DNA of 64,000 bases. Origin: Terriglobia bacterium (lineage in GTDB: Bacteria; Acidobacteriota; Terriglobia; 20CM-2-55-15). The stretch spans positions 17,480-81,479 of the forward strand of contig CBDAOY010000002.1 of assembly GCA_965198225.1 (NCBI GenBank). Direction: 5' to 3'. A program made the translations under genes and the position numbers. Under the pieces are notes generated by a model that saw only the letters and a program-made list of their open reading frames with translations, was not told the DNA's origin and did no database searches. Positions 3,792-62,309 of this stretch are shown here, piece after piece (position 1 is the first letter of the stretch; the number at the start of each line of letters is the position of its first letter).

Positions 3792-4057
3792 GTGAAATCC
3801 ACGGCGTCGATCACGCCGACTACCGCCGCGTCGATCGGAGCCATCGTCCGTCCGACCGTCGCAGCGGCCGACCAGCCTTCCTGGACGATGAGCACGCGGT
3901 CACCGACTCCTGCATCGACGCCATCGAGTGCCAGCAGGGTCTTCCCGGCTTCTTCACCGCCGAGGTCGAGCGGTTGAATGAGAAGGATCTTACGACCGTG
4001 ATGGCTCGGTTCCTTCTGTGTCGCCACTACGTTCCCGACGACTCTCGCGATGATCAT
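3788..4057 (-). CDS. BMC pentamer shell protein (EutN/CcmL)
   Basis: [15 protein letters not shown]...[12 protein letters not shown]...[11 protein letters not shown]; start reassigned to ATG at 4057. Confidence 0.92.
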
Positions 4058-4298
4058 AGATATTGTCCACGATGCCGACGATCGTCGCATCGGAAGGAAC
4101 TTCTTCGGGCGAGAACGCGAATGAGGCTTCGCGCCCCCTGCAGACGTAAACTCTCTCGCCGGCCCCGGCGCCGACAGCATCGATTGCGACCACGGACCCT
4201 CCGTCCGAGTCGCGTCGCACGAGCAGCAGTTTCTTACCTTCGAGAGTTTCGTTCTTGGCTGTGGAGACGACGCGGCCGATGACTTGTCCCAGATACAT
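3990..4298 (-). CDS. BMC pentamer shell protein (EutN/CcmL)
   Basis: [15 protein letters not shown]...[13 protein letters not shown]...DATIVGIVD; tail overlaps next gene by 68 nt. Confidence 0.9.
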
Positions 4299-22702: not shown

Positions 22703-22776
<74 letters not shown>

Positions 22777-46325: not shown

Positions 46326-47120
46326 TCAAAGCCGGAATCGGATGCCTGCCTCAATCTGATCGGAATCAATCGGCGCCCCCCGGCTGGAGCGAAAGCGATA
46401 ACCAAATCGGAAATCCACGCGCTGGGCGGCCCGAACCAAGAAGCCCGCCATGATCTGATAGGAAAACCGGGAATCCTCATGTTCGGCTGTGGTCGTGAAG
46501 GGTAGGTGCAGGGGTGGGAGCGAGGGAACAAAGTTTTCTGGAATAACAGAGCCGGGAAAAGCCTCGAAGTCGAATGGACTGGTAATGACTGGGTAACTAA
46601 AGCCGGGTGGATACGACAGGGTAGAGGTGACGGTTCTATCGTGGAAGAAAGCGCCCAGACCGAACCCAACATAGGGACTCACTCTCCATTCGGGATAGCG
46701 GTAGTAAAAATTCCCCATGAGGGACGGGGTCTTGATCTCTCCGTCAATCTCTACGGTCGGTAAGGGAAAGGAAATGCTAGTAAAACGAGCACTGGAACTT
46801 TCAAAAGACCCCGCCAATGCCCCCGTAGTAAAACCTGTGGGAACGCCGGAGGGATCGCCGATGCCGACTTGCTGGTATCCCCCTTCGATCTCAATCGAGA
46901 TGCCCTCGTTGAAGGCGTAGCCGAAGGCCGCGGTAAAAGCGCCCCCAGCTTTCAAACCGAGACCCGTTGAGGTCTTCGGGTCGTATGGGAAAACACCCGA
47001 TCCAGCAACAGCGAGATAGAACTGCCCGTTTCCGTCAATCGGTTGCGCAGCCTGTTGCGCAGTTCCAGGCAGAGCAAGCTGCGCCAGAGCGATAGCAAGG
47101 CCGGCGAGCGTCTTGGTCAA
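46326..47120 (-). CDS. Outer-membrane beta-barrel protein (OmpA/Opa-like)
   Basis: Signal peptide; SPYVGFGLG; FSYQIMAG; FGYRF; C-terminal AGIRFRL; start uncertain. Confidence 0.75.
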   Translation of the reverse strand: MTKTLAGLAIALAQLALPGTAQQAAQPIDGNGQFYLAVAGSGVFPYDPKTSTGLGLKAGGAFTAAFGYAFNEGISIEIEGGYQQVGIGDPSGVPTGFTTGALAGSFESSSARFTSISFPLPTVEIDGEIKTPSLMGNFYYRYPEWRVSPYVGFGLGAFFHDRTVTSTLSYPPGFSYPVITSPFDFEAFPGSVIPENFVPSLPPLHLPFTTTAEHEDSRFSYQIMAGFLVRAAQRVDFRFGYRFRSSRGAPIDSDQIEAGIRFRL

Positions 47121-47497
47121 ACTTTTTTCTCTCTCGTTCGTTAGCTGGCCTTGACCCGTCCGCTGATGGCTTCGCGCAACACTTCCTGGTGCACCATGCG
47201 TTTCACGCAGTTGAGCAACCTCGGCCCGAATCTCCAGGATCTCAGCTTGCAACCTGCTAGTCGCGTTGAGGAGCACCCCCGCGAGTGCGCCGCCAACGCT
47301 GAGAATGGCGATGATTCTCCACGATGCTGGACTCGACCCAGTCACAGAGTCTGGGATACTTTTGTTGCCACTTCTTCGCCATGCGGCCAGGTCCCGCCGG
47401 GACGCTGACCGATCCCAGGATCTCGAGCCCGCCCTCCGCTCAGGTCAGGCAATATCATACATATTCTGGCGGTAGGTGGCTCCGTCTCGAAGAAATC

Positions 47498-47860
47498 TCA
47501 AGACGGGGGCTGCCGCTGGCCGCTCTTGATCGAAGACCCCCTATCGGGGTCCTCTCCGGCGAAAGGCCACGGCGCGAACGCCGGGATAGCCTCGCCGGTC
47601 ATCCACTGCTGCAGGACACGCTGCCAGCCCGCCTCGGGGGTGGCGGTCCAAGCGTCCAGGTCCGCATCCATCGTCTTGCGGTGGACTTCCGCCCGGAGCG
47701 CGATGAGGCGCGTGAACTCGTCTTCGAGCTGCGCCAAGTGGTCGATCTGCTTCCGGGTTTCCTCACCGCGTTCCAACTCGTCGGCCAGCTCCATGAGTCG
47801 GGCCGTCATTGCCTTGGTGATCGCGGCCCGTTGTTCGTCAATGGATGTTGCGTTCGCCAT
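47498..47860 (-). CDS. Hypothetical helical protein behind structured leader A
   Basis: GGAGG RBS from the repeat; 120 aa. Confidence 0.65.
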   Translation of the reverse strand: MANATSIDEQRAAITKAMTARLMELADELERGEETRKQIDHLAQLEDEFTRLIALRAEVHRKTMDADLDAWTATPEAGWQRVLQQWMTGEAIPAFAPWPFAGEDPDRGSSIKSGQRQPPS

Positions 47861-48103
47861 GATGTGTTGTCCTCCGAAGTGAAAGGGTTTGATCTGTGTC
47901 GCTCACAAAGACACGCGACACCGGGAAACCCTGTGGAGGGGGACAAGTGCCCCCGCGACCGGTGACGGCCGGGCCGAACAAGAGCGCCACGCATGAGAGA
48001 CCCCGCGAAGCGGATTCCCGGTCTGGCCTGGGGGATGCTTCGGCCAAGCCCAAGGCACCGGCAAAAGGCCAAGCGCACACTGGCGAACCACGCCCCATGA
48101 TCC
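47861..48103 (-). repeat. Structured ~240-nt leader, copy A
   Basis: Shares GGATCATG, CCAGACCGGGAA..CGC..TCGCGGGGTCT and GTGAGCGACA..ATCAAACCCTT..GGAGG..ATGGCG with copies B and C. Confidence 0.88.
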
Positions 48104-48241
48104 GCGACGCGATCAGAGGGACAGGGCCGGATGAGGCGGTGAGGGGAAAGCTACGCGAGAGCAGGTTAGAGACACACTAGACACGGGCTGTCGGACATGT
48201 CTGCAAAGTGTTTCCAACCGGAAGGCTATGGGCCCTGCCCG

Positions 48242-48740
48242 TAGCCACGGTGGGGTGGCTACGGAAATAGAGCATAGATCAGGACAAGAGGAACGCCTGC
48301 CAGGATCGCCACCTGAAGGCTGAACGCCATCGGCAACATCCGCTCCTTGCGTTGCTCTTCAAGCATCCGGGAGAGTGTTCGAACCTGGCGAGCCGCCTCG
48401 GCTGAATCTTCGCGGGACCTCGGCCTGTTCCTGAGCGCTTGTCAACATGGCTTGCAAGCGTTCCTCAACGGAGAGCAAGGCTGGGTCCGGATTCTTCCCG
48501 CTCGATGTTCCTGTCCCGCTGCCTGTCGCCGTCAATGCTGACGACGGCGCGGAGTTCCTCCTGCTGCCGCCATATCCATATCGCGTGCTCCAGCCGGTCT
48601 ATCTCATCCGATATTGGTTTGATCTCTTTTCGCATCCAGTCCGGGTCCGTCTCCTTGCCGGTAGCCTTCCGGGCCTGAAACAAGTTGGCCCGCTGCTTGA
48701 TGAAGAGAAAGAGTTTGGTTTCCATTTCGATGATGCTCAT
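48242..48740 (-). pseudogene. Frameshifted coiled-coil protein with C-terminal TM anchor
   Basis: MSIIEMETKLF... continues in shifted frames to FSLQVAILAGVPLVLIYALFP*. Confidence 0.45.
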
Positions 48741-48904
48741 TGGGTACTCCGTTGTTCGTCCGGCGTTGATCTCGCCGGACACGTCGAGTTCAACGGGAAA
48801 AGTTCTGAATCGGGTTACAGGCACGGGCTGTCGGGCAGGTCTCGAAAGTGTCTCGAACCGGGTTGGAAAGGACGGCGGGGCTGTTCCCCGCCGTCCGCAT
48901 TGAA

Positions 48905-49207
48905 TTATTCCCCTCTCGCGTCGTCCTCCACGATGTAGGAGTCTGCGACAACTTCCTGCCGCTCGTCAACCGGCGCAGCCTTCGCGGCGGCGTCGGACCG
49001 GAAGATTTCCGAGTGGGCCTGGTCGGCCAGTTTCGCCAACACCAGGAGGTCGTCCCTCCCGAAGCTCTACGTGGACTTCCAGGTATCGCCGTCCCTGTAG
49101 AGACGGCCAAAGGTGACATTCGCCCGGGGGCGCTCGTCGGTTCCGTTCTGCCAAATCGTCGCCTTGACGCGTCCGATCCGGATTTCGTTGATGGGTTGAT
49201 TCGCCAT
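48905..49207 (-). pseudogene. PC4/Whirly-like small nucleic-acid-binding protein with in-frame TAG (49067-49069)
   Basis: MANQPINEIRIGRVKATIWQN..NVTFGRLYRDGDTWKST*SFGRDDLLVLAKLADQAH. Confidence 0.65.
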
Positions 49208-49448
49208 GATGTTTTTCCTCCTGAGAGTTAAGGGTTTGATCTTTGTCGCTCACCCGAGGAAGGCGAGAAAGTCAAACCCGGGATTGAAGGGGATGAGTCG
49301 AAGCCGCGCGGGGGACGGGCCAGCACGGCTACCAGCAACTCGACTGACAGACCCCGCGAAGGCGGGTTCCCGGTCTGGCCGGAGAGGTGCGCCGGACCAC
49401 CGGACCCCGCAGAGGCAAGCGGAGAATGGCGACACGCATCCATGATCC
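49208..49448 (-). repeat. Structured ~240-nt leader, copy B
   Basis: Same conserved blocks; most diverged copy. Confidence 0.85.
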
Positions 49449-49824
49449 GGGGCGTCAGAGCGATTGGCATGGAACCGCTCCGCGCGCGCGACGACCTAGG
49501 GGTATCCGGACGGCGACACCTGGAAGTCCAGCATGAGGGATCCGCGGGACGCCGGGTGAAACGGCCATGCTCCGAACGCCCTGTCTTCTGCCGTGCGGGC
49601 CCGAACCGACACGGGCCACGGCGACGATGGAGTGGGCGACGCCAAGATGTTGCGGGTGGCATAATCCGGCCGGACGCGGGCGGCTCCACAAGCCCCGTCG
49701 GCGGAGCTGCATCCAAGCGGCTACAGGCGGGGAGTCGGACGTGTCTCGGACGTGTCTCCAGGCGATGATCCCGCCGGGCCCCTCGATCTACGGCGGGGAT
49801 AAGCGCCCCGCCGCGCTACGGGGC

Positions 49825-50086
49825 CTACTTCCCTGCCCCGGCCTCGAGTTTCTCCTGTGCCACGTCTTCCAACGAAAGCTCGAAGACGAAACGATGGACG
49901 CGGTCGGCCACAACCGACAGCAGGAGCAGGTCATCGATCCCAAAGTTCCGCAATCGACCGGATTTGATGCCGTGGGTATAGAGACGGTAGAAGCTGACGC
50001 CGGGGCGTAGCGTCGGCCCCGTGATCCCAAACCGTCGCGCCGACGTTGCCGAGCTGGATTTCTTTGATTCGTGTTTGTTCCGCCAT
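49825..50086 (-). pseudogene. Second PC4-like paralog, frameshift near 50003
   Basis: MAEQTRIKEIQLGNVGATVWD / VSFYRLY..NFGIDDLLLLSVVADRVH. Confidence 0.6.
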
Positions 50087-50326
50087 GATGTTGTCCTCCG
50101 AAGTGAAAGGGTTTGATTTTTGTCGCTCACAAGAACATGCGACAAAGGCAAACCCTGTAGAGGGGGACACGCGCCGCCGTCACCGCGGACGGCCTGGCCG
50201 ACAAAAAGCGCCACGCATGACAGACCCCGCGAAGCGGGTTCCCGGTCTGGCTTTGGGGGGTGCGTCGGCCACGCCAGACACCGGCAAAAGGCAAGCGGAA
50301 CACTGGCGAAACACGGCCCATGATCC
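50087..50326 (-). repeat. Structured ~240-nt leader, copy C
   Basis: Colinear with copy A over its whole length. Confidence 0.88.
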
Positions 50327-50421
50327 AGTCGGCACGGCGAGAGATCGGGAAGTCGGTTGAGCGTGGGCTATAAGAAGAAGCCCAACACGGCGTGGAAAGG
50401 CCGCTGAGAACCGGGAACGGG

Positions 50422-50901
50422 CTATTGGGAAGCCGTGTCCTTGCCCGCAAGGATGGCGCGGGCCTGGTTGGTGAGGAGTTCCTTCTCCTTGGGCGTAAAC
50501 CGGATATCTCCGCTGACCCACTTGGTGATATCCCGGGTGGCGATCTCGGTGATCCGCATCTCCTCACCCCGAAGAGTGATGGAAATCGCACCGGCAATCT
50601 CAATCGCTTGCTGGCACTCCCGGATGGATATCGTTGGCGGGCGGGGAGGAAACCGCTCAAGGAACTGGCGTTCGTCTTCTGCAATGATGGCGCGCGCCTT
50701 CCGGGTGAGCTCTTCCTGGCTGGCGCGCGGAATCCGGATATCTCCGCAAACCCAGTGCGTTCCCTGGACTCGGAGAGCTCGGGTGATGAGCACATCCTCC
50801 CCACGGATAATCACAGGAATGCCGACATCGACGGTCTGACTCGCCCTTTCGACGATAGAAATCGCCCTCTGGCAAGTTCCAATGGATATTTTCACTTTCA
50901 T
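50422..50901 (-). CDS. Hypothetical protein made of two tandem ~70-aa repeats
   Basis: ISIxxCQxAIxI...RGE...IT...WVxGDIR...ELxxxARAI occurs twice. Confidence 0.65.
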   Translation of the reverse strand: MKVKISIGTCQRAISIVERASQTVDVGIPVIIRGEDVLITRALRVQGTHWVCGDIRIPRASQEELTRKARAIIAEDERQFLERFPPRPPTISIRECQQAIEIAGAISITLRGEEMRITEIATRDITKWVSGDIRFTPKEKELLTNQARAILAGKDTASQ

Positions 50902-51252
50902 CTTTCATTCGTAGAGTGAAGCGTCGGCGTTTTCTCTGCAAGCAAAAGCGGCTGAGCCGGAGGAATCGCGGGTACCGGACCGTCCATTTCGCCGAGAACT
51001 TCATCGATCGGAACCAATCTATCTTGTTCATGCCGTATGGCTCATTCTTCCCCGGTTGCGGACAAGACAAGGACGCACGTCGCGAACCTGAGCTATTGAA
51101 ACCGGGCGTCGTCGAGCCGCCGGCAAGCATCGGTTCCCTTGCGGCGCGTTGTTTTCTGCGTAGTCGAAAGGCAGCCGGCCAATGCTATCCCGCTTCACGG
51201 GACTGGCGCTTCGCCGTGTGAAACCCTCTAACTCTTAGCGCGATTTACATGC

Positions 51253-53105: not shown

Positions 53106-53334
53106 TTGTGCTCCTCACATTTGGGTTATATACATGCTTGACGGCATGGCCGTCGATGGGAATATTAGCGTCGTGTGCGCGATAATAAAAACTTCCGGGA
53201 CCTCACTGGAAGTCAAAGAGCCTAATTCTTCACCCAACCTGTTCCAGAAATTCTTACAATACAATAGAATAAATACTTCTATTAATTAATTTCAAACGAA
53301 CTTAATATAGTATTTGTATTACGGCCTCTGTCGC

Positions 53335-54102
53335 ATGCGCATAATCGCCATTACGAATCAGAAAGGTGGTACCTGCAAGACCACAACCGCTGTCAACCTT
53401 GCCGCAGCTCTTGGGGCCCGTGGAAAGCGCGTACTACTGATCGACCTCGACCCACAAGCTAGCAGCTCTGCTTGGCTTGCCGTCAGGGATGGGGGAAAGG
53501 GGTTGTTCGAGGCCTTCAGTGAAGAGCAAGATCTCAGTAAACTTGTTGTCTCGACACAAGTGCCCGGCGTTGATCTGATCCCATCTTCCCGCTGGTTGGT
53601 TGGAATCGAGAAGACCCTTTCCGGAGAAATCGGAGCGGAGATGATGCTCCGTAAGCGCGTGGAGGCTTTGCAGTCGAGGAGGTGGAACTACCTCTTCCTC
53701 GATTGTCCCCCTTCGGTGGGTTTTCTGTCTTTGGCCGCACTCATTGCCGCCAAAGATGTCCTTGTTCCGGTGGAAGTCTCCTCCATGGCCATGGCAGGCG
53801 TCGCTTCCCTAATAGGGACCCTTGATAAAGTTCGTGAGCGGCTCAATCCAAGACTCAATCTCTACGGTGTTCTCCCTTGCCGAGTGGATATGCGTACACG
53901 CATCGGCCGCGACATTGTTGCTTCACTTAAGAAACACTTTGGCGAAAAAGTCTTCAAGTCGGCAATTCGAGAAACTGTGCGCCTCAAGGAAGCCTGGTCG
54001 CACGCTCAACCGGTAACGACCTACGCTCCAAAAAGCCGAGCGGCTGCGGATTTTCTTAGCCTGGCAGACGAGGTTCTGCAGCGGAATCAAAGAGGTAAAT
54101 AA
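53335..54102 (+). CDS. parA: ParA/Soj partition ATPase
   Basis: NQKGGTCKTTT, LIDLDPQ, DCPPS, IRETVRLKEA. Confidence 0.93.
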   Translation: MRIIAITNQKGGTCKTTTAVNLAAALGARGKRVLLIDLDPQASSSAWLAVRDGGKGLFEAFSEEQDLSKLVVSTQVPGVDLIPSSRWLVGIEKTLSGEIGAEMMLRKRVEALQSRRWNYLFLDCPPSVGFLSLAALIAAKDVLVPVEVSSMAMAGVASLIGTLDKVRERLNPRLNLYGVLPCRVDMRTRIGRDIVASLKKHFGEKVFKSAIRETVRLKEAWSHAQPVTTYAPKSRAAADFLSLADEVLQRNQRGK

Positions 54103-58515: not shown

Positions 58516-61500
58516 ATGGCAGTCCAACGTTGGAGTGATGTCAGAGAGGTAGGGAATCGCTTGGCGGCGCATGGCCTTGCCGGTCTGCTGTCGATCGACC
58601 TTGAGGGCAGCAAGAGCATTGGGTCAATCGGCGCGATACGTACCGATCGCTCGACCACCTACGCTTGGCGTGGAGACAAGACGGGATTGCGCGCGGCGCT
58701 TGCCACGCTCGATGAATTTGCCGCCGGGGCTTCTTACCTCGTCGGGCACAACATCATCGAACACGATCTGGAACTCCTCGCCAAGCACGCGCCGGAGCTG
58801 AAGCTGCTCACCCTTCCCGCTATCGATACGCTGTACCTGAGCCCGCTGGCATTCCCGGAAAACCCTTACCATCACCTCGTCAAGCAATATCAGGAACCCA
58901 CACTCACGAGAGTGCAGATAAACGATCCCCTTCTGGATGCGGAACTGACCCTCGAACTGCTTGCCGACGTTGCCGATGCGTTGAAGATGAGAGAAGGCGA
59001 CCTCCTGCACGTTTGGCATGCACTCCTTGCCACCGGCGTCAAAGGACACGCCTTCGACCGGGTGTTCCGGACGATCCGTGGTAGCAACGCGACACCGCTT
59101 GTCAAGAACGCGGTCCCGGCGATCACGGGCCGCCTCGGGAAAGGCGGTTGCCCGAACCAAGCGGCGGATATCGCCCGTAACGCGCTCTCGGACCCCCTCG
59201 CGCTCACCTATCTACTGGCATGGTTGCCGGCGGCGGGAGGCAATTCCATCATTCCTCCCTACGTCGAGAAGCGGTTCGAACCGAGCAGACTCGCAACGAA
59301 GCTCCGCGATGCGTACTGCGGTGAACGAACCTGCCGCTGGTGCTCGGAACGCCTCGATCCCACAAAGGCGCTGAAGCGTTGGTTCGGTTTCCCGAGCTTC
59401 CGCGACCAGCCCCAGAGTCGAGACGGAAAGAGCCTCCAGCAGTCCATTACCGAGAGACATCTTGCCCGGGCCCATGTTCTCGGAATTCTTCCAACCGGGA
59501 CCGGCAAATCCCTTTGTTACCAGCTCCCGGCGCTAATGCGCTACGAAGCGACCGGCGCACTCACCGTGGTGATCTCGCCACTGGTGGCCCTGATGGCGGA
59601 TCAGGTAACGGCGATGCGTCGCCAGGGCATCGTCTGCGCCACCACGATCAATGGTCTCATCTCGATGCCAGAGCGCGCCGAAGCGCTCGATCAAATCCGT
59701 CTCGGCGATGCCGGTATCGTACTTGTCGCGCCCGAGCAGCTGCGCAACCGTTCCTTCAGAAAGGCGATCACGGGGCGCCGGATCGGCGCATGGGTTGTAG
59801 ACGAGGCGCACTGCCTCTCGAAATGGGGACACGATTTCCGCCCCGACTACCGCTACGTCGCGCGTTACATAGCCGAGCATCAGGCTGAGAGCCGGGCGCC
59901 GATTCTGTGCTTGACTGCCACCGCCAAGAATGACGTCGTCGAAGACATCCGAGATCACTTCGAGCAGACGTTGCGGTCGCAGCTCGAAGTGATCGACGGC
60001 GGGGCGGAACGCGGGAACCTCGCATTCGTTGTCATGCCGACTTCGGCTTCGCAGCGGATCGAACACATCCATCAGGCACTTGAAGACGCGCTTGAAAGGG
60101 AAGACTCAGGCGGCGCCATCGTGTACTGCACGACCAAGCGGAGCACTGAGGAGACCGCCCAAGCGCTCGCCGATCGGGGACTGACCGCCCAGCACTTCCA
60201 CTCCGGCCTCTCACCCGAACGAAAACGTGAAATCCAGCGCGGTTTCCACGAGGGAGAGATCGACGTGGTGGTCGCCACCAACGCCTTCGGCATGGGAATC
60301 GATAAGCCGGACGTTCGTGCGGTCGTGCACGCCGAGATTCCGGGCTCGCTTGAGAGCTACCTCCAAGAAGCCGGCCGGGCAGGAAGAGACGGCGCGTACG
60401 CCCATTGCCTCCTGCTATTCGAACCCGACGATACCGAGCGGCAATTCTCGCTCACAGCTCGCTCTCGATTGGAGCGACGAGACATCCAGGCAGTGCTGCG
60501 GGCGCTCCGTCGCCTCGACCAGCGTCGCCGTCGCCACCACGGGGACACCGAGGATACGGTCGTCGCGACAACGGGAGAGATCCTCCTCGAAGACGACGAC
60601 GGCGAGTTCACGCGCGACAGCGTTACCGATGACCACCGGGTGCGCACCGCCCTCGCCTGGCTAGAGGAAGCGAAGCTCGCACGCCGCGACGAAAACTACA
60701 CTTCTGTCTTTCCCTCGTCCTTGCGCGTCCCGAACCTGACAGCCGCCCGCGAACGCATCGAGCGCGAAGGAAACAAGCGGAAGATTCGAAAAGACGTCCG
60801 GGTGCAGATGCTGCGCGTCGTGCAAACACTGGCAAATGCAGATCCGGACATCGGCGTCTCCACCGACGAATTGATGAACGAGTGCGGTTGCTCCCCGCAG
60901 CAACTCCGCAAGGTCTTCAGCACGCTCGAGGAAATCGGGGTCGCGTCGAACGACGTGCGGATCACCGTCTATGTCCATGCGGGAGTCGAGAACGCTTCTT
61001 CTCGACGCCTGACGCTTGCCCGCGAGCTAGAGGAGGCGCTCATCGCGGAGCTTCGCGAGGAGGCGCCCGACCAGGAGATCGACACCTGGACCCGGCTTGC
61101 GCTTCGCCCCCTCGCCCAGCGCCTTCGGGAGAAAGACATAGAGAACCCGCTCCCCGAACGGCTGGTAAGGCTCCTGCGGAGCATCTCTGCCGACGGCCGT
61201 GACGAGCCCGACGCGAAACGAAGCATCGAAATCCGCGCCCGCGACATGGAGACCATAGGAGTTCGGCTCCGGCGGAACTGGGCTGGCATCGATCGCATCG
61301 CAAGGCTTCGCCGAGATGGCGCTGCGCGGCTCCTGGAACATCTAGTCCGAAAGGTGCCTGACGGCGTCCGCGGTGTCGACCTGCTCGTGGAAACCACCTA
61401 CGGCGCACTGGTGCAGGCAATTAAGGACGACCTCGCGCTGAGGTCGGAGTTGAAGAACCAAACGACGCAGCCGCTTGTCGACCGCGCGCTGCTCTGGATG

Positions 61501-62052
61501 CATGAACAGGAGGTCATCACTCTCAACCGCGGTCTGACCGTGTTTCGTCCAGCAATGATGTTGAAGGTCACGCGAGACGGGAAGCCCTTCACAATCGCGG
61601 ACTTCAAGCCGCTGCAAGAGCACTATGCCGAACAGACTGCGCAGATCCATGTCGTCACGGAGTACGCAAAGCTAGGCATGGCCGACATTCACTTGGCGCT
61701 CCGCCTCGCGATGGACTACTTCCAGCTTGATAACAAGGAGTTCGTCGACAAATGGTTCAAGGGTAAGGAGACGACGCTCCGCCGCAATACCCTCCCAGAG
61801 CACTACGAAGAGATCGTGAAGAAGCTTGGCAACCGGACCCAGGAGCGGATTGTCGCTGACGATCGCGACCGCACCAACGTGCTGGTACTCGCAGGCCCGG
61901 GATCGGGCAAGACGCGCGTGCTGGTGCACCGCATTGCCTACCTCATCCGTGTGCGCCGCGAAAACCCGGGAAGCATATTGGCGCTCACCTACAACCGCCA
62001 CGCAGCCGTGGAGGCACGACGGCGCCTCCACGAATCAGGTACCGCCCGCTGA
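58516..62052 (+). CDS. Large helicase fusion, 5' part: exonuclease-like, RecQ core and start of a UvrD domain
   Basis: IDLE..GHNII.HD..DTL; PTGTGKSLCYQLP, DEAHCLSKWGHDFRPDY, QEAGRAGRDG; AGPGSGKTR. Confidence 0.88.
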   Translation: MAVQRWSDVREVGNRLAAHGLAGLLSIDLEGSKSIGSIGAIRTDRSTTYAWRGDKTGLRAALATLDEFAAGASYLVGHNIIEHDLELLAKHAPELKLLTLPAIDTLYLSPLAFPENPYHHLVKQYQEPTLTRVQINDPLLDAELTLELLADVADALKMREGDLLHVWHALLATGVKGHAFDRVFRTIRGSNATPLVKNAVPAITGRLGKGGCPNQAADIARNALSDPLALTYLLAWLPAAGGNSIIPPYVEKRFEPSRLATKLRDAYCGERTCRWCSERLDPTKALKRWFGFPSFRDQPQSRDGKSLQQSITERHLARAHVLGILPTGTGKSLCYQLPALMRYEATGALTVVISPLVALMADQVTAMRRQGIVCATTINGLISMPERAEALDQIRLGDAGIVLVAPEQLRNRSFRKAITGRRIGAWVVDEAHCLSKWGHDFRPDYRYVARYIAEHQAESRAPILCLTATAKNDVVEDIRDHFEQTLRSQLEVIDGGAERGNLAFVVMPTSASQRIEHIHQALEDALEREDSGGAIVYCTTKRSTEETAQALADRGLTAQHFHSGLSPERKREIQRGFHEGEIDVVVATNAFGMGIDKPDVRAVVHAEIPGSLESYLQEAGRAGRDGAYAHCLLLFEPDDTERQFSLTARSRLERRDIQAVLRALRRLDQRRRRHHGDTEDTVVATTGEILLEDDDGEFTRDSVTDDHRVRTALAWLEEAKLARRDENYTSVFPSSLRVPNLTAARERIEREGNKRKIRKDVRVQMLRVVQTLANADPDIGVSTDELMNECGCSPQQLRKVFSTLEEIGVASNDVRITVYVHAGVENASSRRLTLARELEEALIAELREEAPDQEIDTWTRLALRPLAQRLREKDIENPLPERLVRLLRSISADGRDEPDAKRSIEIRARDMETIGVRLRRNWAGIDRIARLRRDGAARLLEHLVRKVPDGVRGVDLLVETTYGALVQAIKDDLALRSELKNQTTQPLVDRALLWMHEQEVITLNRGLTVFRPAMMLKVTRDGKPFTIADFKPLQEHYAEQTAQIHVVTEYAKLGMADIHLALRLAMDYFQLDNKEFVDKWFKGKETTLRRNTLPEHYEEIVKKLGNRTQERIVADDRDRTNVLVLAGPGSGKTRVLVHRIAYLIRVRRENPGSILALTYNRHAAVEARRRLHESGTAR

Positions 62053-62309
62053 GCGGGCGGTATGACGAAGGCCCCCCGAGGGGGCCTATAAGGGCATCCT
62101 TCCTTCCAGCCTTCTGGCCATCACAATCCACCTGTCGCTTTCGCCCGATGACGTGGACGCCGAGTGACACGACCGATGCGATACAATCCGTCGTGCTGGT
62201 GCACCGCATTGCCTACCTCATCCGTGTGCGCCGCGAAAACCCGGGAAGCATATTGGCGCTCGACCTACAACCGCCACGCAGCCGTGGAGGCACGACGGCG
62301 CCTCCACGA
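61917..62309 (+). repeat. 117-bp direct duplication around a 158-bp hairpin-bearing insert
   Basis: 61917-62033 repeated at 62192-62309 with one extra G. Confidence 0.9.

Follow-up and report, generated by a model that had tools for sequence, protein, structure and literature searches.

The locus examined here raises the question of why small genes of an acidobacterial mobile element are preceded by copies of one long, folded sequence, and whether that sequence works as RNA, as single-stranded DNA (ssDNA) or has no function of its own. Acidobacteriota dominate in soil, yet little work exists on their conjugative elements, whose relaxase is not recognisable with standard models. In the window, by which the whole analysed stretch of 64 kb is meant, three leader copies of about 240 nt (A, B and C) lie on the minus strand; the whole source genome contains seven.

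The leaders and the genes behind them

47498..47860, minus strand: gene A, an intact 120-aa ORF from the ORF list, with no Pfam or NCBIfam match
47861..48103, minus strand: leader copy A (R1 match 47859-48090, 136.9 bits)
48179..48221, minus strand: D4a, a second conserved module (repeat family D4), about 75 nt upstream of leader A
48468..48740, minus strand: 91-aa ORF without a leader, between D4b and D4a, with no Pfam or NCBIfam match
48819..48861, minus strand: D4b, second D4 copy, by nhmmer
48905..49207, minus strand: gene B, an 88-aa-family pseudogene with an in-frame TAG at 49067-49069
49208..49448, minus strand: leader copy B (R1 match 49206-49436, 182.8 bits)
49723..49765, minus strand: D4c, third and more diverged D4 copy, by nhmmer
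49825..50086, minus strand: gene C, a frameshifted 88-aa-family pseudogene, by three-frame translation
50087..50326, minus strand: leader copy C (R1 match 50085-50313, 150.3 bits)
53314..54102, plus strand: parA-type ATPase gene (Pfam AAA_31 4.8e-46; CbiA and ParA matches), neighbourhood context only

A sequence-only reading of this DNA had placed three diverged copies at 47861-48103, 49208-49448 and 50087-50326, and all three were confirmed by MAFFT (mean column identity 82%), nhmmer (E 1e-74 to 1e-88) and a covariance model (137-183 bits); they were also recovered as repeat families D2, D3, D7 and D9. Each copy can be read from a GGATCATG start through a CAGAC...GTCTG stem with a CCGC-TTC-GCGG hairpin to a further hairpin, closed by GGGTTT/AAACCC, that precedes GGAGG-N-ATGGCG. 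Covariation of this last hairpin between the copies had also been claimed, and it holds for A against C, in which the inner stem changes from GTGTCGC/GCGACAC to TTGTCGC/GCGACAA in a compensatory manner; in B the stem is TTCTCGC/GCGACAA, and the pairing earlier given for this copy is not perfect because of one C·C mismatch. Searched at gathering threshold with the window and seven of the loci, Rfam 15 returned tRNA matches only, and at E up to 10 positions 47000-51000 gave four matches of 13.9-18.5 bits against thresholds of 45-65. The leader matches no Rfam family at either setting, and the repeats belong to a genuine folded element of about 230-270 nt that had not been catalogued before. An upstream ORF starting from the ATG in GGATCATGG was considered and rejected, since this ATG is not kept in other taxa and the copies differ by indels that are not multiples of three; sigma-54 and RfaH-ops-like motifs were sought by eye and dropped.

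Of the three small genes said to be driven by the leaders, only gene A is intact; genes B and C are broken by the TAG and by a frameshift that leaves the N-terminal and C-terminal parts of gene C in different frames. Translation against the intact copies D and E places the TAG of gene B at a Gln of the intact paralogues, and the 88-aa family is intact elsewhere in the source genome. Gene A shares with other leader-fed genes only its first 3-4 codons (MAN...), and its close homologues number only five among 5.8 billion proteins. No known family was found among the leader-fed proteins in Pfam, NCBIfam or ESM Atlas; for the 88-aa protein, sequence searches of Pfam, NCBIfam and the PDB gave no match, and ESM Atlas returned hypothetical proteins only. 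Its AlphaFold2 model (pLDDT 84) has four strands and one long helix and finds no Foldseek match at E up to 0.001. The second-ranked Foldseek entry is a bacterial PC4 homologue with a probability of only 0.35, and the top VIA-align rows are YbaB-like chains, whose Z values of 5.8, 5.4 and 4.5 fall short of what would be taken as a match. With no family for the downstream proteins and two of the three window genes broken, the establishment or anti-defence role first proposed for the gene array is a conjecture.

The D4 module, with the consensus AGACACTTTGnAGACnTGTCnGACA...GTGTCT, was located by nhmmer three times in the window and seven times in loci L010, L017, L018 and L021, always in the same orientation, and was found in only five sources. 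Its consensus structure is weak (-10.8 and -13.3 against -4.2 +/- 2.0 for shuffles, whose minimum is -10.2), and the module is possibly an operator, a promoter or a cassette boundary.

Genomic setting

The covariance model finds 76 copies across 84 sources. Of 43 loci from Acidobacteriota, 38 have the leader directly upstream of the 88-aa gene, as do 11 of 12 from Planctomycetota and none of 24 from Verrucomicrobiota. In the 80 loci retrieved through the 88-aa protein, every match except one shares the strand of the 88-aa gene. In 66 of the 76 matches a start codon that opens an ORF of at least 30 aa follows within 6 nt of the leader. The downstream gene belongs to the 88-aa family after 50 matches, while eight leaders are followed by ORFs starting with MNQTQ or MDQTQ (137-168 aa with hydrophobic stretches, plus one of 84 aa) and several others by singleton genes. 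Arrays of two to four leaders occur in 14 of the 43 Acidobacteriota loci. Reuse ahead of different genes in co-oriented arrays, as first proposed for the window, is supported.

A recurrent gene order is seen in the source genome and other Acidobacteriota: T4CP, VirB11-like ATPase, SNase nuclease, the leader with the 88-aa gene, further leader-gene units, and then xis/int, ParA or RepA_C. On contig C9 the leader begins about 16 nt past the stop codon of the upstream nuclease gene, which leaves no room for a promoter; this spacing fits read-through from the T4CP-VirB11-nuclease operon. Of the two neighbours named in the sequence-only reading, parA is a real gene (53314-54102), and the mobC-like remnant could not be found by Pfam and NCBIfam searches of the neighbouring ORFs or by PF05713, which has no match genome-wide. 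The relaxase models PF03432, PF08751, PF03389 and PF07514 have no match in the source genome; PF03432 occurs in one of five other carrier genomes, 52 kb from the leader locus. No oriT was found either. A 772-aa protein encoded upstream of T4CP has no Pfam, NCBIfam or PDB match.

BLAST of copy A against 60 relatives gave one weak match outside the source genome, and in a phylum sample the model matched 3 of 150 other genomes. Distant homologues of the 88-aa protein (39-47% identity) occur on eight PLSDB plasmids, which hold no closer ones, and on two of these plasmids the model scores for a leader are not convincing (pK2D_1, 13.5 bits; pSINAC03, 5.2 bits). The Verrucomicrobiota homologues, inspected by eye, are preceded by seemingly ordinary promoters of the TTG...TGnTATAA type and short leaders, so the leader is not tied to the 88-aa gene everywhere.

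Consensus fold and covariation

The leader folds in two parts: Domain I, a long, branched hairpin that contains a three-way junction, and Domain II, a helix between the Shine-Dalgarno (SD) sequence and an upstream CCUCC around the covarying hairpin P4. In total the consensus has 55 pairs in 13 helices, none longer than about 10 bp, with invariant unpaired bases GCCAGA and GUCUGUCAC in Domain I and an invariant GGUGA loop. The positions below, all within the minus-strand leaders, were mapped from alignment (A5 for copy A).

47947-48073: leader A, Domain I (branched long hairpin), three-way-junction core at 47995-48027
47938-47942 and 47870-47874: leader A, Domain II, anti-SD CCCCC and SD
47885-47931: leader A, hairpin P4, with inner stem GTGTCGC 47915-47921 / GCGACAC 47896-47902
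49298-49420: leader B, Domain I, with anti-SD 49288-49292, P4 49232-49280 and SD GGAGG 49217-49221
50171-50296: leader C, Domain I, with anti-SD 50162-50166, P4 50108-50156 and SD GGAGG 50095-50099

When 32 leaders are aligned with plain MAFFT, paired cells make up 77.0%, compared with 39.8-46.0% when the partners are slid, changes on both sides occur in 46 of 65 pairs (27-37 in controls), and none of 500 shuffles reaches the observed values. Default RNAalifold recovered only 7 pairs from the MAFFT alignment, and Ribosum scoring (ViennaRNA) was needed. The signal is retained in the model-fitted alignment of all 76 copies, the covariance model having been suggested by the sequence-only reading: 83.7% of cells are paired (36.4-46.4% in slid controls), 48 of 55 pairs show compensatory change (22-36) and compensatory cells number 447 (66-155). 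Parsimony on a tree of 54 full-length leaders counts 130 double, compensatory events. Consensus folding yields -71 to -85 kcal/mol, whereas alignments with shuffled columns give -16.2 +/- 3.6. For the anti-SD/SD helix itself, pairing is 72.1% in the MAFFT alignment, where 5 of 6 pairs covary, and 88.9% in the fitted one, where 4 of 5 do; in copy E, CCUUC is matched by GAAGG. Folds of single sequences do not exceed shuffled ones in stability (z -0.29 and -0.41), so the case for structure is comparative only. By covariation tests and tree parsimony, the early description of a structured, covarying family upstream of genes on conjugative elements is borne out.

These counts bear on the view that the leader has no function of its own, being either the leftover of a duplicated gene with its upstream region or a MITE-like mobile element. 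In the source genome 4 of 5 full leader copies precede paralogues of one gene, as duplication would produce; unrelated genes follow leaders elsewhere, leaders B and C are intact though their genes decayed, and a passenger would scarcely have been kept in so many Acidobacteriota and Planctomycetota loci with 130 compensatory events. MITEs carry terminal inverted repeats, make a target duplication and insert in any orientation, at variable distance from genes, whereas the leader's 3' end is fixed as an SD and start codon in 66 of 76 matches. Hardly credible on these grounds, the view of a functionless remnant is nearly refuted by comparison across loci.

Alternatively, the leaders, and perhaps the D4 boxes with them, could be shared sites at which gene cassettes are swapped between elements, with regulation secondary. 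The homology boundary lies 3-4 codons inside the gene, such that unrelated proteins start MANQ, MANA or MANS; D4 boxes divide units in the window, L021, L018, L017 and L010; and the genes after the 88-aa gene differ between otherwise syntenic loci. Homologous recombination, however, requires sequence identity and not a covarying fold, so a role mainly in recombination leaves the compensatory changes unexplained, and the D4 structure is only weak. The attC sites of integrons are imperfect palindromes of 57-141 nt 3' of the cassette ORF and act with an integron integrase; unlike them the leader is 230 nt long and 5' of its gene, and no integron-type integrase was seen in a non-systematic search. 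Cassette exchange as the main role is given a very slight chance.

Candidate functions and related systems

The favoured reading, with confidence slightly short of even, is that the leader is a portable mRNA leader of conjugative elements that gates translation. Integrative conjugative elements of Acidobacteriota would carry such a module, as would, in a weaker form, those of Planctomycetota, and each copy ends in an SD sequence with the start codon and opening 3-4 codons of the next gene. It would act as RNA, either as a 5'-UTR or as an intercistronic leader, and translation would be off by default because Domain II pairs the SD GGAGG with the upstream CCUCC around a stable covarying hairpin. 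To free the ribosome-binding site, a protein, a small RNA or a ligand would act on Domain I or on the invariant GGUGA loop. Starting from a folded element that stands before the start codons of different genes, we infer that the folded molecule is mRNA, that its translation is repressed and that a trigger exists.

Transcription and strand usage bear directly on this proposal. Four regions were scanned for promoters (window 47300-50700; L003 700-2200; L012 2000-3700; L021 2500-6100), and no sigma-70-like site lies within any leader on either strand; the L021 region has a single such site, outside its four leaders. A promoter for the sense transcript was not found in these regions with an E. coli-type consensus, from which acidobacterial promoters may differ. 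The strand signature of an RNA, in which G·U is tolerated, A·C avoided and the sense strand the better folder, is absent, which speaks against the mRNA reading: paired columns hold 131 G·U against 155 A·C, and tree events from Watson-Crick to G·U number 52 against 65 to A·C. The Domain I stem alone leans sense (23 against 14 events), and P4 leans antisense (8 against 18). Among the 54 leaders, which are related sequences and not independent, the antisense strand is the better folder in 50 with RNA parameters and in all 54 with DNA parameters, the sense strand being better in only 4 of 54 with the former; the consensus structure also fits the antisense strand better in 50. The purine-rich composition of the antisense strand may explain part of its better folding. 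On average the consensus structure has -22 to -31 kcal/mol with RNA parameters, against +0.9 to +5.3 with DNA parameters, so that the fold calls for the stability of RNA. Over the 54 leaders the mean DNA minimum free energy is -55.5 on the antisense strand and -49.1 on the sense strand.

Frpo/ssi elements are reportedly ssDNA promoters of IncF/IncI1 leading regions, a finding credited to Masai and Arai in 1997, and the leader might similarly be an ssDNA element of the transferred strand, a new promoter or priming site that fires its gene in the recipient. The conjugative context (T4CP, VirB11-like ATPase, nuclease, leader-gene units and xis/int), the lack of a double-stranded sigma-70 promoter in the four scanned regions, the better folding of the template strand (50-54 of 54) and the unfavoured G·U on the sense strand are in line with such a role, as would be a first gene product that is possibly a PC4-like ssDNA binder, though its modelled fold reaches that Foldseek probability of only 0.35. 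In PMC11541004 and PMC12672017, Frpo arrays are described as co-oriented, with small genes each carrying its own copy, which is the architecture of one leader per small gene seen here. The testable features nevertheless fail. The defining large stem-loop that rebuilds -35/-10 boxes is absent (no sites in the leaders of the four scanned regions, on either strand), a fold of 13 short helices joined in part by a three-way junction, with unpaired bases that are conserved, does not mimic a duplex, and with DNA parameters the consensus fold lacks stability. As DNA, the template strand of copy A reaches -48.3 kcal/mol (shuffle mean -46.9, z -0.41), well short of the cut-off of below -75 kcal/mol used to screen for ssDNA promoters in PMC12672017, although this comparison is rough. 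Moreover, covarying SD pairing has no role in a promoter, and should oriT be located upstream of the T4CP operon, by analogy with well-studied systems, the array would enter late and not first. On pSINAC03 the distant 88-aa homologue is oriented opposite to mobF, with no significant leader. An ssDNA promoter is considered unlikely, though it retains a real claim to attention.

Rather improbable is a further variant, in which the leader acts as a sensor and controls an entire gene set of the conjugative element at once, either as an RNA switch or as a dual-use fold that serves first as ssDNA and then as mRNA. In the switch form it would be riboswitch-like or protein-operated and common to every early gene of the element; in the dual-use form, folding first as ssDNA and then as mRNA would explain the missing wobble bias on both strands.

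The same symmetry invites a comparison with sense/antisense RNA pairs such as FinP/traJ or CopA/CopT, in which both strands are transcribed and both fold. Watson-Crick pairs are kept and neither G·U nor A·C is favoured, as expected of mirrored stem-loops in two complementary RNAs; alignment noise could also give such symmetry. YUNR-type motifs occur in the loops of antisense systems, and the opposite strand of the invariant loop GGUGAG is CUCACC, with a YUNR-type CUCA motif. The SD lies inside the paired region, and antisense control is frequent on plasmids and ICEs. Against an antisense pair, which we regard as highly improbable, the antisense strand has no promoter-like or terminator-like site in the four scanned regions.

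What is defined here, beneath all of these readings, is a large folded element whose covariation is unusually rich. It comes with a covariance model that works and has a clear place in the genome, right after the T4CP-VirB11-nuclease operon and before a highly conserved 88-aa protein. An RNA switch would be a new cis-regulatory class controlling the expression of gene sets of mobile elements, and an ssDNA promoter would extend early single-strand expression far beyond Proteobacteria and to elements without sigma-70 boxes. As a sensor or dual-use element, the leader would represent a new class of regulator, specific to the poorly known ICEs of Acidobacteriota and Planctomycetota.

Several known systems resemble the leader in part. 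CUP repeats of the IncN pKM101/R46 leading region are said to be promoter-operator DNA (credited to Delver and Belogurov, 1997) and, like the leader, are upstream modules before several different genes of a conjugative element, which places a gene set under common control. Compared by description, the leader differs in having no sigma-70 promoter and a covarying fold that extends up to the start codon; by analogy with CUP, the D4 box of some arrays could take the operator role. Frpo/ssi elements (classes 1-3) are likewise repeated folded elements of about 200-300 nt just upstream of small genes, in co-oriented arrays on a conjugative element, and as ssb follows Frpo, so the first leader-fed gene possibly encodes a nucleic-acid binder, judging from its structural model. 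Rfam has no families for Frpo or ssi. Frpo/ssi, however, is one long duplex-like hairpin with -35/-10 boxes, whereas the leader is branched, built of short helices and free of such boxes, has its SD within the covarying fold and is poorly stable with DNA parameters.

Leaders that sequester the SD, such as translational riboswitches and RNA thermometers, share with this element a covarying 5' structure, an SD within a helix and constant spacing from the start codon. Motifs in the 5'-UTRs of anti-CRISPR operons, bound by Aca proteins, are also found on mobile elements before genes of early or counter-defence type (PMC13551039). The leader, at about 230 nt and two domains, is much larger than Aca hairpins or thermometers and lacks the bias of G·U over A·C that is typical of RNA structures; with SD-sequestering leaders it has in common a structure backed by compensatory change and an SD paired with its upstream complement.

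Leader copies and their genes

Three diverged copies of a folded repeat of about 240 nt, the leader, are present on the minus strand of the window as the sequence-only reading had proposed, and the motifs named there are legible in the sequence. A repeat finder, nhmmer and a covariance model each recovered copies A to C independently, and the three share a mean column identity of 82%. Searching all 6.4 Mb of this acidobacterial genome added two intact copies (D and E), a diverged copy on contig C5 at 579 kb, a weak one on contig C4, and fragments.

Leader copies in the window and elsewhere in the genome
47861-48103, minus strand, leader copy A (repeat finder, nhmmer, covariance model)
49208-49448, minus strand, leader copy B (repeat finder, nhmmer, covariance model)
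50087-50326, minus strand, leader copy C (repeat finder, nhmmer, covariance model)
Contig C9, 48.6 kb, leader copy D, intact (whole-genome search)
Contig C5, 535 kb, leader copy E, intact (whole-genome search)

Paralogues of a single 88-aa protein lie directly 3' of copies B, C, D and E; the genes are intact after D and E, interrupted by an in-frame TAG (49067-49069) after B, and frameshifted after C. Copy A precedes an intact 120-aa ORF which is unrelated to the 88-aa family and has only five close homologues. It is true, as had been remarked, that conservation is higher in the non-coding part than in the ORFs, because two of the three genes in the window are in decay. The first 3-4 residues (MAN...) are common to otherwise unrelated leader-fed products; therefore, the module takes in the start of the gene.

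The island around the array has a degraded look, with IS elements, toxin-antitoxin pairs, an MmeI-type restriction gene and parA in it; of the two genes said to lie nearby, parA is thus confirmed, and no mobC-like gene was found. A tRNA gene (22703-22775) lies at the edge of the island and may mark the old integration site of a decayed element. Direct repeats of 70 nt and 47 nt, 100% identical, occur about 275 nt apart at 61917-62033 and 62192-62309, inside or beside a DEAD/UvrD-type helicase gene (58516-62052; 62164 onward), which suggests a recent internal duplication splitting that gene.

The 88-aa protein is widespread and highly conserved (490 matches, many at 70-90% identity), has no sequence match in Pfam, NCBIfam or the PDB, and its neighbours in the ESM Atlas are all annotated as hypothetical. 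The AlphaFold2 model (pLDDT 84) comprises four strands and a long helix. Foldseek placed a bacterial PC4 homologue second, with a probability of only 0.35, and YbaB-like chains top the VIA-align list (Z 5.8); these fold searches are not decisive, and nucleic-acid binding by the protein is a lead only.

Fold and covariation

The consensus fold of the leader (RNAalifold, ribosum scoring) reaches -71 kcal/mol for the sense strand and -85 for the antisense strand, against -16.2 +/- 3.6 for column shuffles. Domain I is a long irregular hairpin with a three-way junction at its tip, flanked by the nearly invariant GCCAGA and GUCUGUCAC. In Domain II an upstream CCUCC pairs with the Shine-Dalgarno (SD) sequence GGAGG, and the hairpin P4 lies inside that helix, with an outer GGGUUUG/CAAACCC stem, an inner stem of 7-8 bp and a loop ending in an invariant GGUGA. 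The inner stem occurs in at least 10 Watson-Crick versions, for example UUGCCGC/GCGGCAA, UUUCCCU/AGGGAAA and UCCCCGU/ACGGGGA. An alternative hairpin (GUGAGCG, loop, CGCUC), mutually exclusive with this inner stem, is possible in 30 of 75 distinct sequences, 12 of which have GNRA loops, and is absent from the window copies.

The covariation first seen among the window copies was borne out in larger alignments, in which every measure exceeded the slid controls. The model-fitted figures are biased to the structure used in fitting, so that those from MAFFT only are the safer ones.

Pairing statistics, MAFFT alignment (32 leaders) and model-fitted alignment (76 matches; biased to the fitted structure)
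Cells paired: MAFFT 77.0% (slid controls 39.8-46.0%); model-fitted 83.7% (36.4-46.4%)
Pairs changed on both sides: MAFFT 46 of 65 (27-37); model-fitted 48 of 55 (22-36)
Compensatory cells: MAFFT 165 (70-102); model-fitted 447 (66-155)
Shuffles reaching the observed value: MAFFT 0 of 500; model-fitted 0 of 500

For 54 distinct full-length leaders, parsimony on their tree counts 130 double changes. It is close to certain that the leader is a real, selected, folded nucleic-acid module, and the suggestion of a new family held: the covariance model finds 76 copies, and no Rfam family matches the leader.

Distribution and conjugative context

In total, 80 loci encoding the 88-aa protein were fetched, one genome per species, and the covariance model, built from 28 leaders, gave 76 matches at E <= 0.001 in 84 sources. 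The leader ends directly before the 88-aa gene in 38 of 43 loci in Acidobacteriota, in 11 of 12 in Planctomycetota (weak matches, mostly to the 3' domain) and in none of 24 in Verrucomicrobiota; two loci were too near an edge to be judged. Since the verrucomicrobial gene occurs without a leader of this type, the long leader is lineage-specific. In Verrucomicrobiota (L037, L047, L048, L053, L060, L061, L076 and other loci) the gene is instead preceded, about 60-130 nt 5', by an apparent ordinary promoter (TTGCCT/TTTAGC ... TGGTATAA), with a short hairpin ahead of the SD sequence. Additional leader copies are found in 14 acidobacterial loci, with a maximum of four (L021). When the phylum was sampled evenly, matches came from 3 of 150 other genomes, a patchy occurrence as expected for a mobile element.

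At 66 of the 76 matches a start codon no more than 6 nt 3' of the leader opens an ORF of at least 30 aa; of these ORFs, 50 are members of the 88-aa family and 8 start with MNQTQ or MDQTQ, the others being singletons. A recurrent gene order was seen in this genome and several others: T4 coupling protein (T4CP), VirB11-like ATPase, SNase-type nuclease, leader with 88-aa gene, further leader-gene units, and then excisionase/integrase, ParA or RepA_C. Leaders precede different genes on conjugative elements. A conserved 17-codon ORF (MANSSFNRETNWRIITS and close variants) stands after three leaders (L010 3634-3687, L015 ~3580, L021 3640-3693), and directly after it comes a longer ORF in a different frame; the short ORF may encode a genuine small peptide or a leader peptide, or reflect a shared frameshift.

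What looks like an intact ICE has its right end on contig C9 at 42.5-51.5 kb (L088 14536-19939, L089 244-3461), in the order 772-aa protein that fits no known family, T4CP, VirB11-like ATPase, SNase nuclease, leader D with the 88-aa gene, 269-aa protein of no assigned family, excisionase and tyrosine integrase, and then chromosomal RNase R. The 772-aa product is a candidate relaxase of unrecognised type. On other elements (L039 3361-5353; L075 3868-4575; L035 4384-5016) the 88-aa gene neighbours SRAP (SOS-response-associated peptidase), TIR-domain, NADAR-domain and Y-family polymerase (IMS) genes, a set commonly met in regions for establishment or counter-defence.

The same arrays contain another conserved module, D4 (AGACACTTTGnAGACnTGTCnGACA...GTGTCT), which is about 55 nt long, has inverted ends (AGACAC/GTGTCT and TAGAGACA/TGTCTCTA) and lies between the stop codon of one gene and the leader or gene that follows. 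D4 gives a weak signal for a consensus structure and may serve as operator, promoter or cassette boundary.

Copies of the D4 module
48179-48221, minus strand, window
48819-48861, minus strand, window
49723-49765, minus strand, window
4039-4091, locus L021
4571-4620, locus L021
5517-5567, locus L021
3326-3379, locus L018
3794-3846, locus L018
4227-4278, locus L017
3992-4045, locus L010

RNA or single-stranded DNA

The leader may well be a translational leader RNA, a reading that falls a little short of probable. It is favoured because the SD sequence lies within a covarying helix (72.1% paired with MAFFT, 88.9% in the fitted alignment), the start codon follows at a constant distance, unpaired bases are conserved in a branched fold, and this fold holds up with RNA parameters alone (-22 and -31 versus +5.3 and +0.9 kcal/mol with DNA parameters). 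As the C9 leader starts about 16 nt past the nuclease stop codon, read-through from the upstream operon is predicted. Against a simple RNA, however, G·U is no commoner than A·C (131 versus 155 cells, 52 versus 65 events), and the lean of G·U:A·C differs by region, with Domain I towards the sense strand (23:14) and P4 towards the antisense strand (8:18). Such symmetric selection would be accounted for by a sense/antisense RNA pair, which we consider improbable.

With RNA parameters 50 of 54 leaders, and with DNA parameters 54 of 54, fold better as the antisense strand, which is also the better match to the consensus in 50 of 54, although its purine-rich composition (sense 35% C, 14% A) and the relatedness of the sequences may account for part of this advantage. 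The advantage is a genuine argument that the template strand, or both strands, are used. A new kind of single-stranded DNA promoter or priming element is unlikely but clearly ahead of the RNA pair. The known Frpo classes are large stem-loops in which -35 and -10 boxes are re-formed (PMC11541004, PMC12672017), whereas scanning four regions on both strands yielded no sigma-70-like pair within the leaders, leader helices are short, and copy A as single-stranded DNA is no more stable than shuffled sequence. Of the initial pairing of single-stranded DNA promoters or cis-regulatory RNAs, the former therefore fares poorly in its known form, and the latter gains from the SD pairing and loses from the missing G·U bias and the better folding of the antisense strand. 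The remaining probability goes to a role as a recombination module or to no function.

Searches of the genome with four relaxase Pfam families and with MobC gave no match, and among five other carrier genomes a PF03432 relaxase occurs in only one, 52 kb from the locus. The conjugative plasmid pSINAC03 encodes a distant 88-aa homologue oriented opposite to mobF, but carries no significant leader.

No account of such an element in Acidobacteriota was found in the open-access literature searched. The leader lacks the testable defining features of Frpo. In its predicted action it is most like SD-sequestering leaders, and in architecture it most resembles Frpo/ssi arrays, the single-stranded DNA promoters of plasmid leading regions, and the conserved upstream (CUP) repeats of IncN plasmids.
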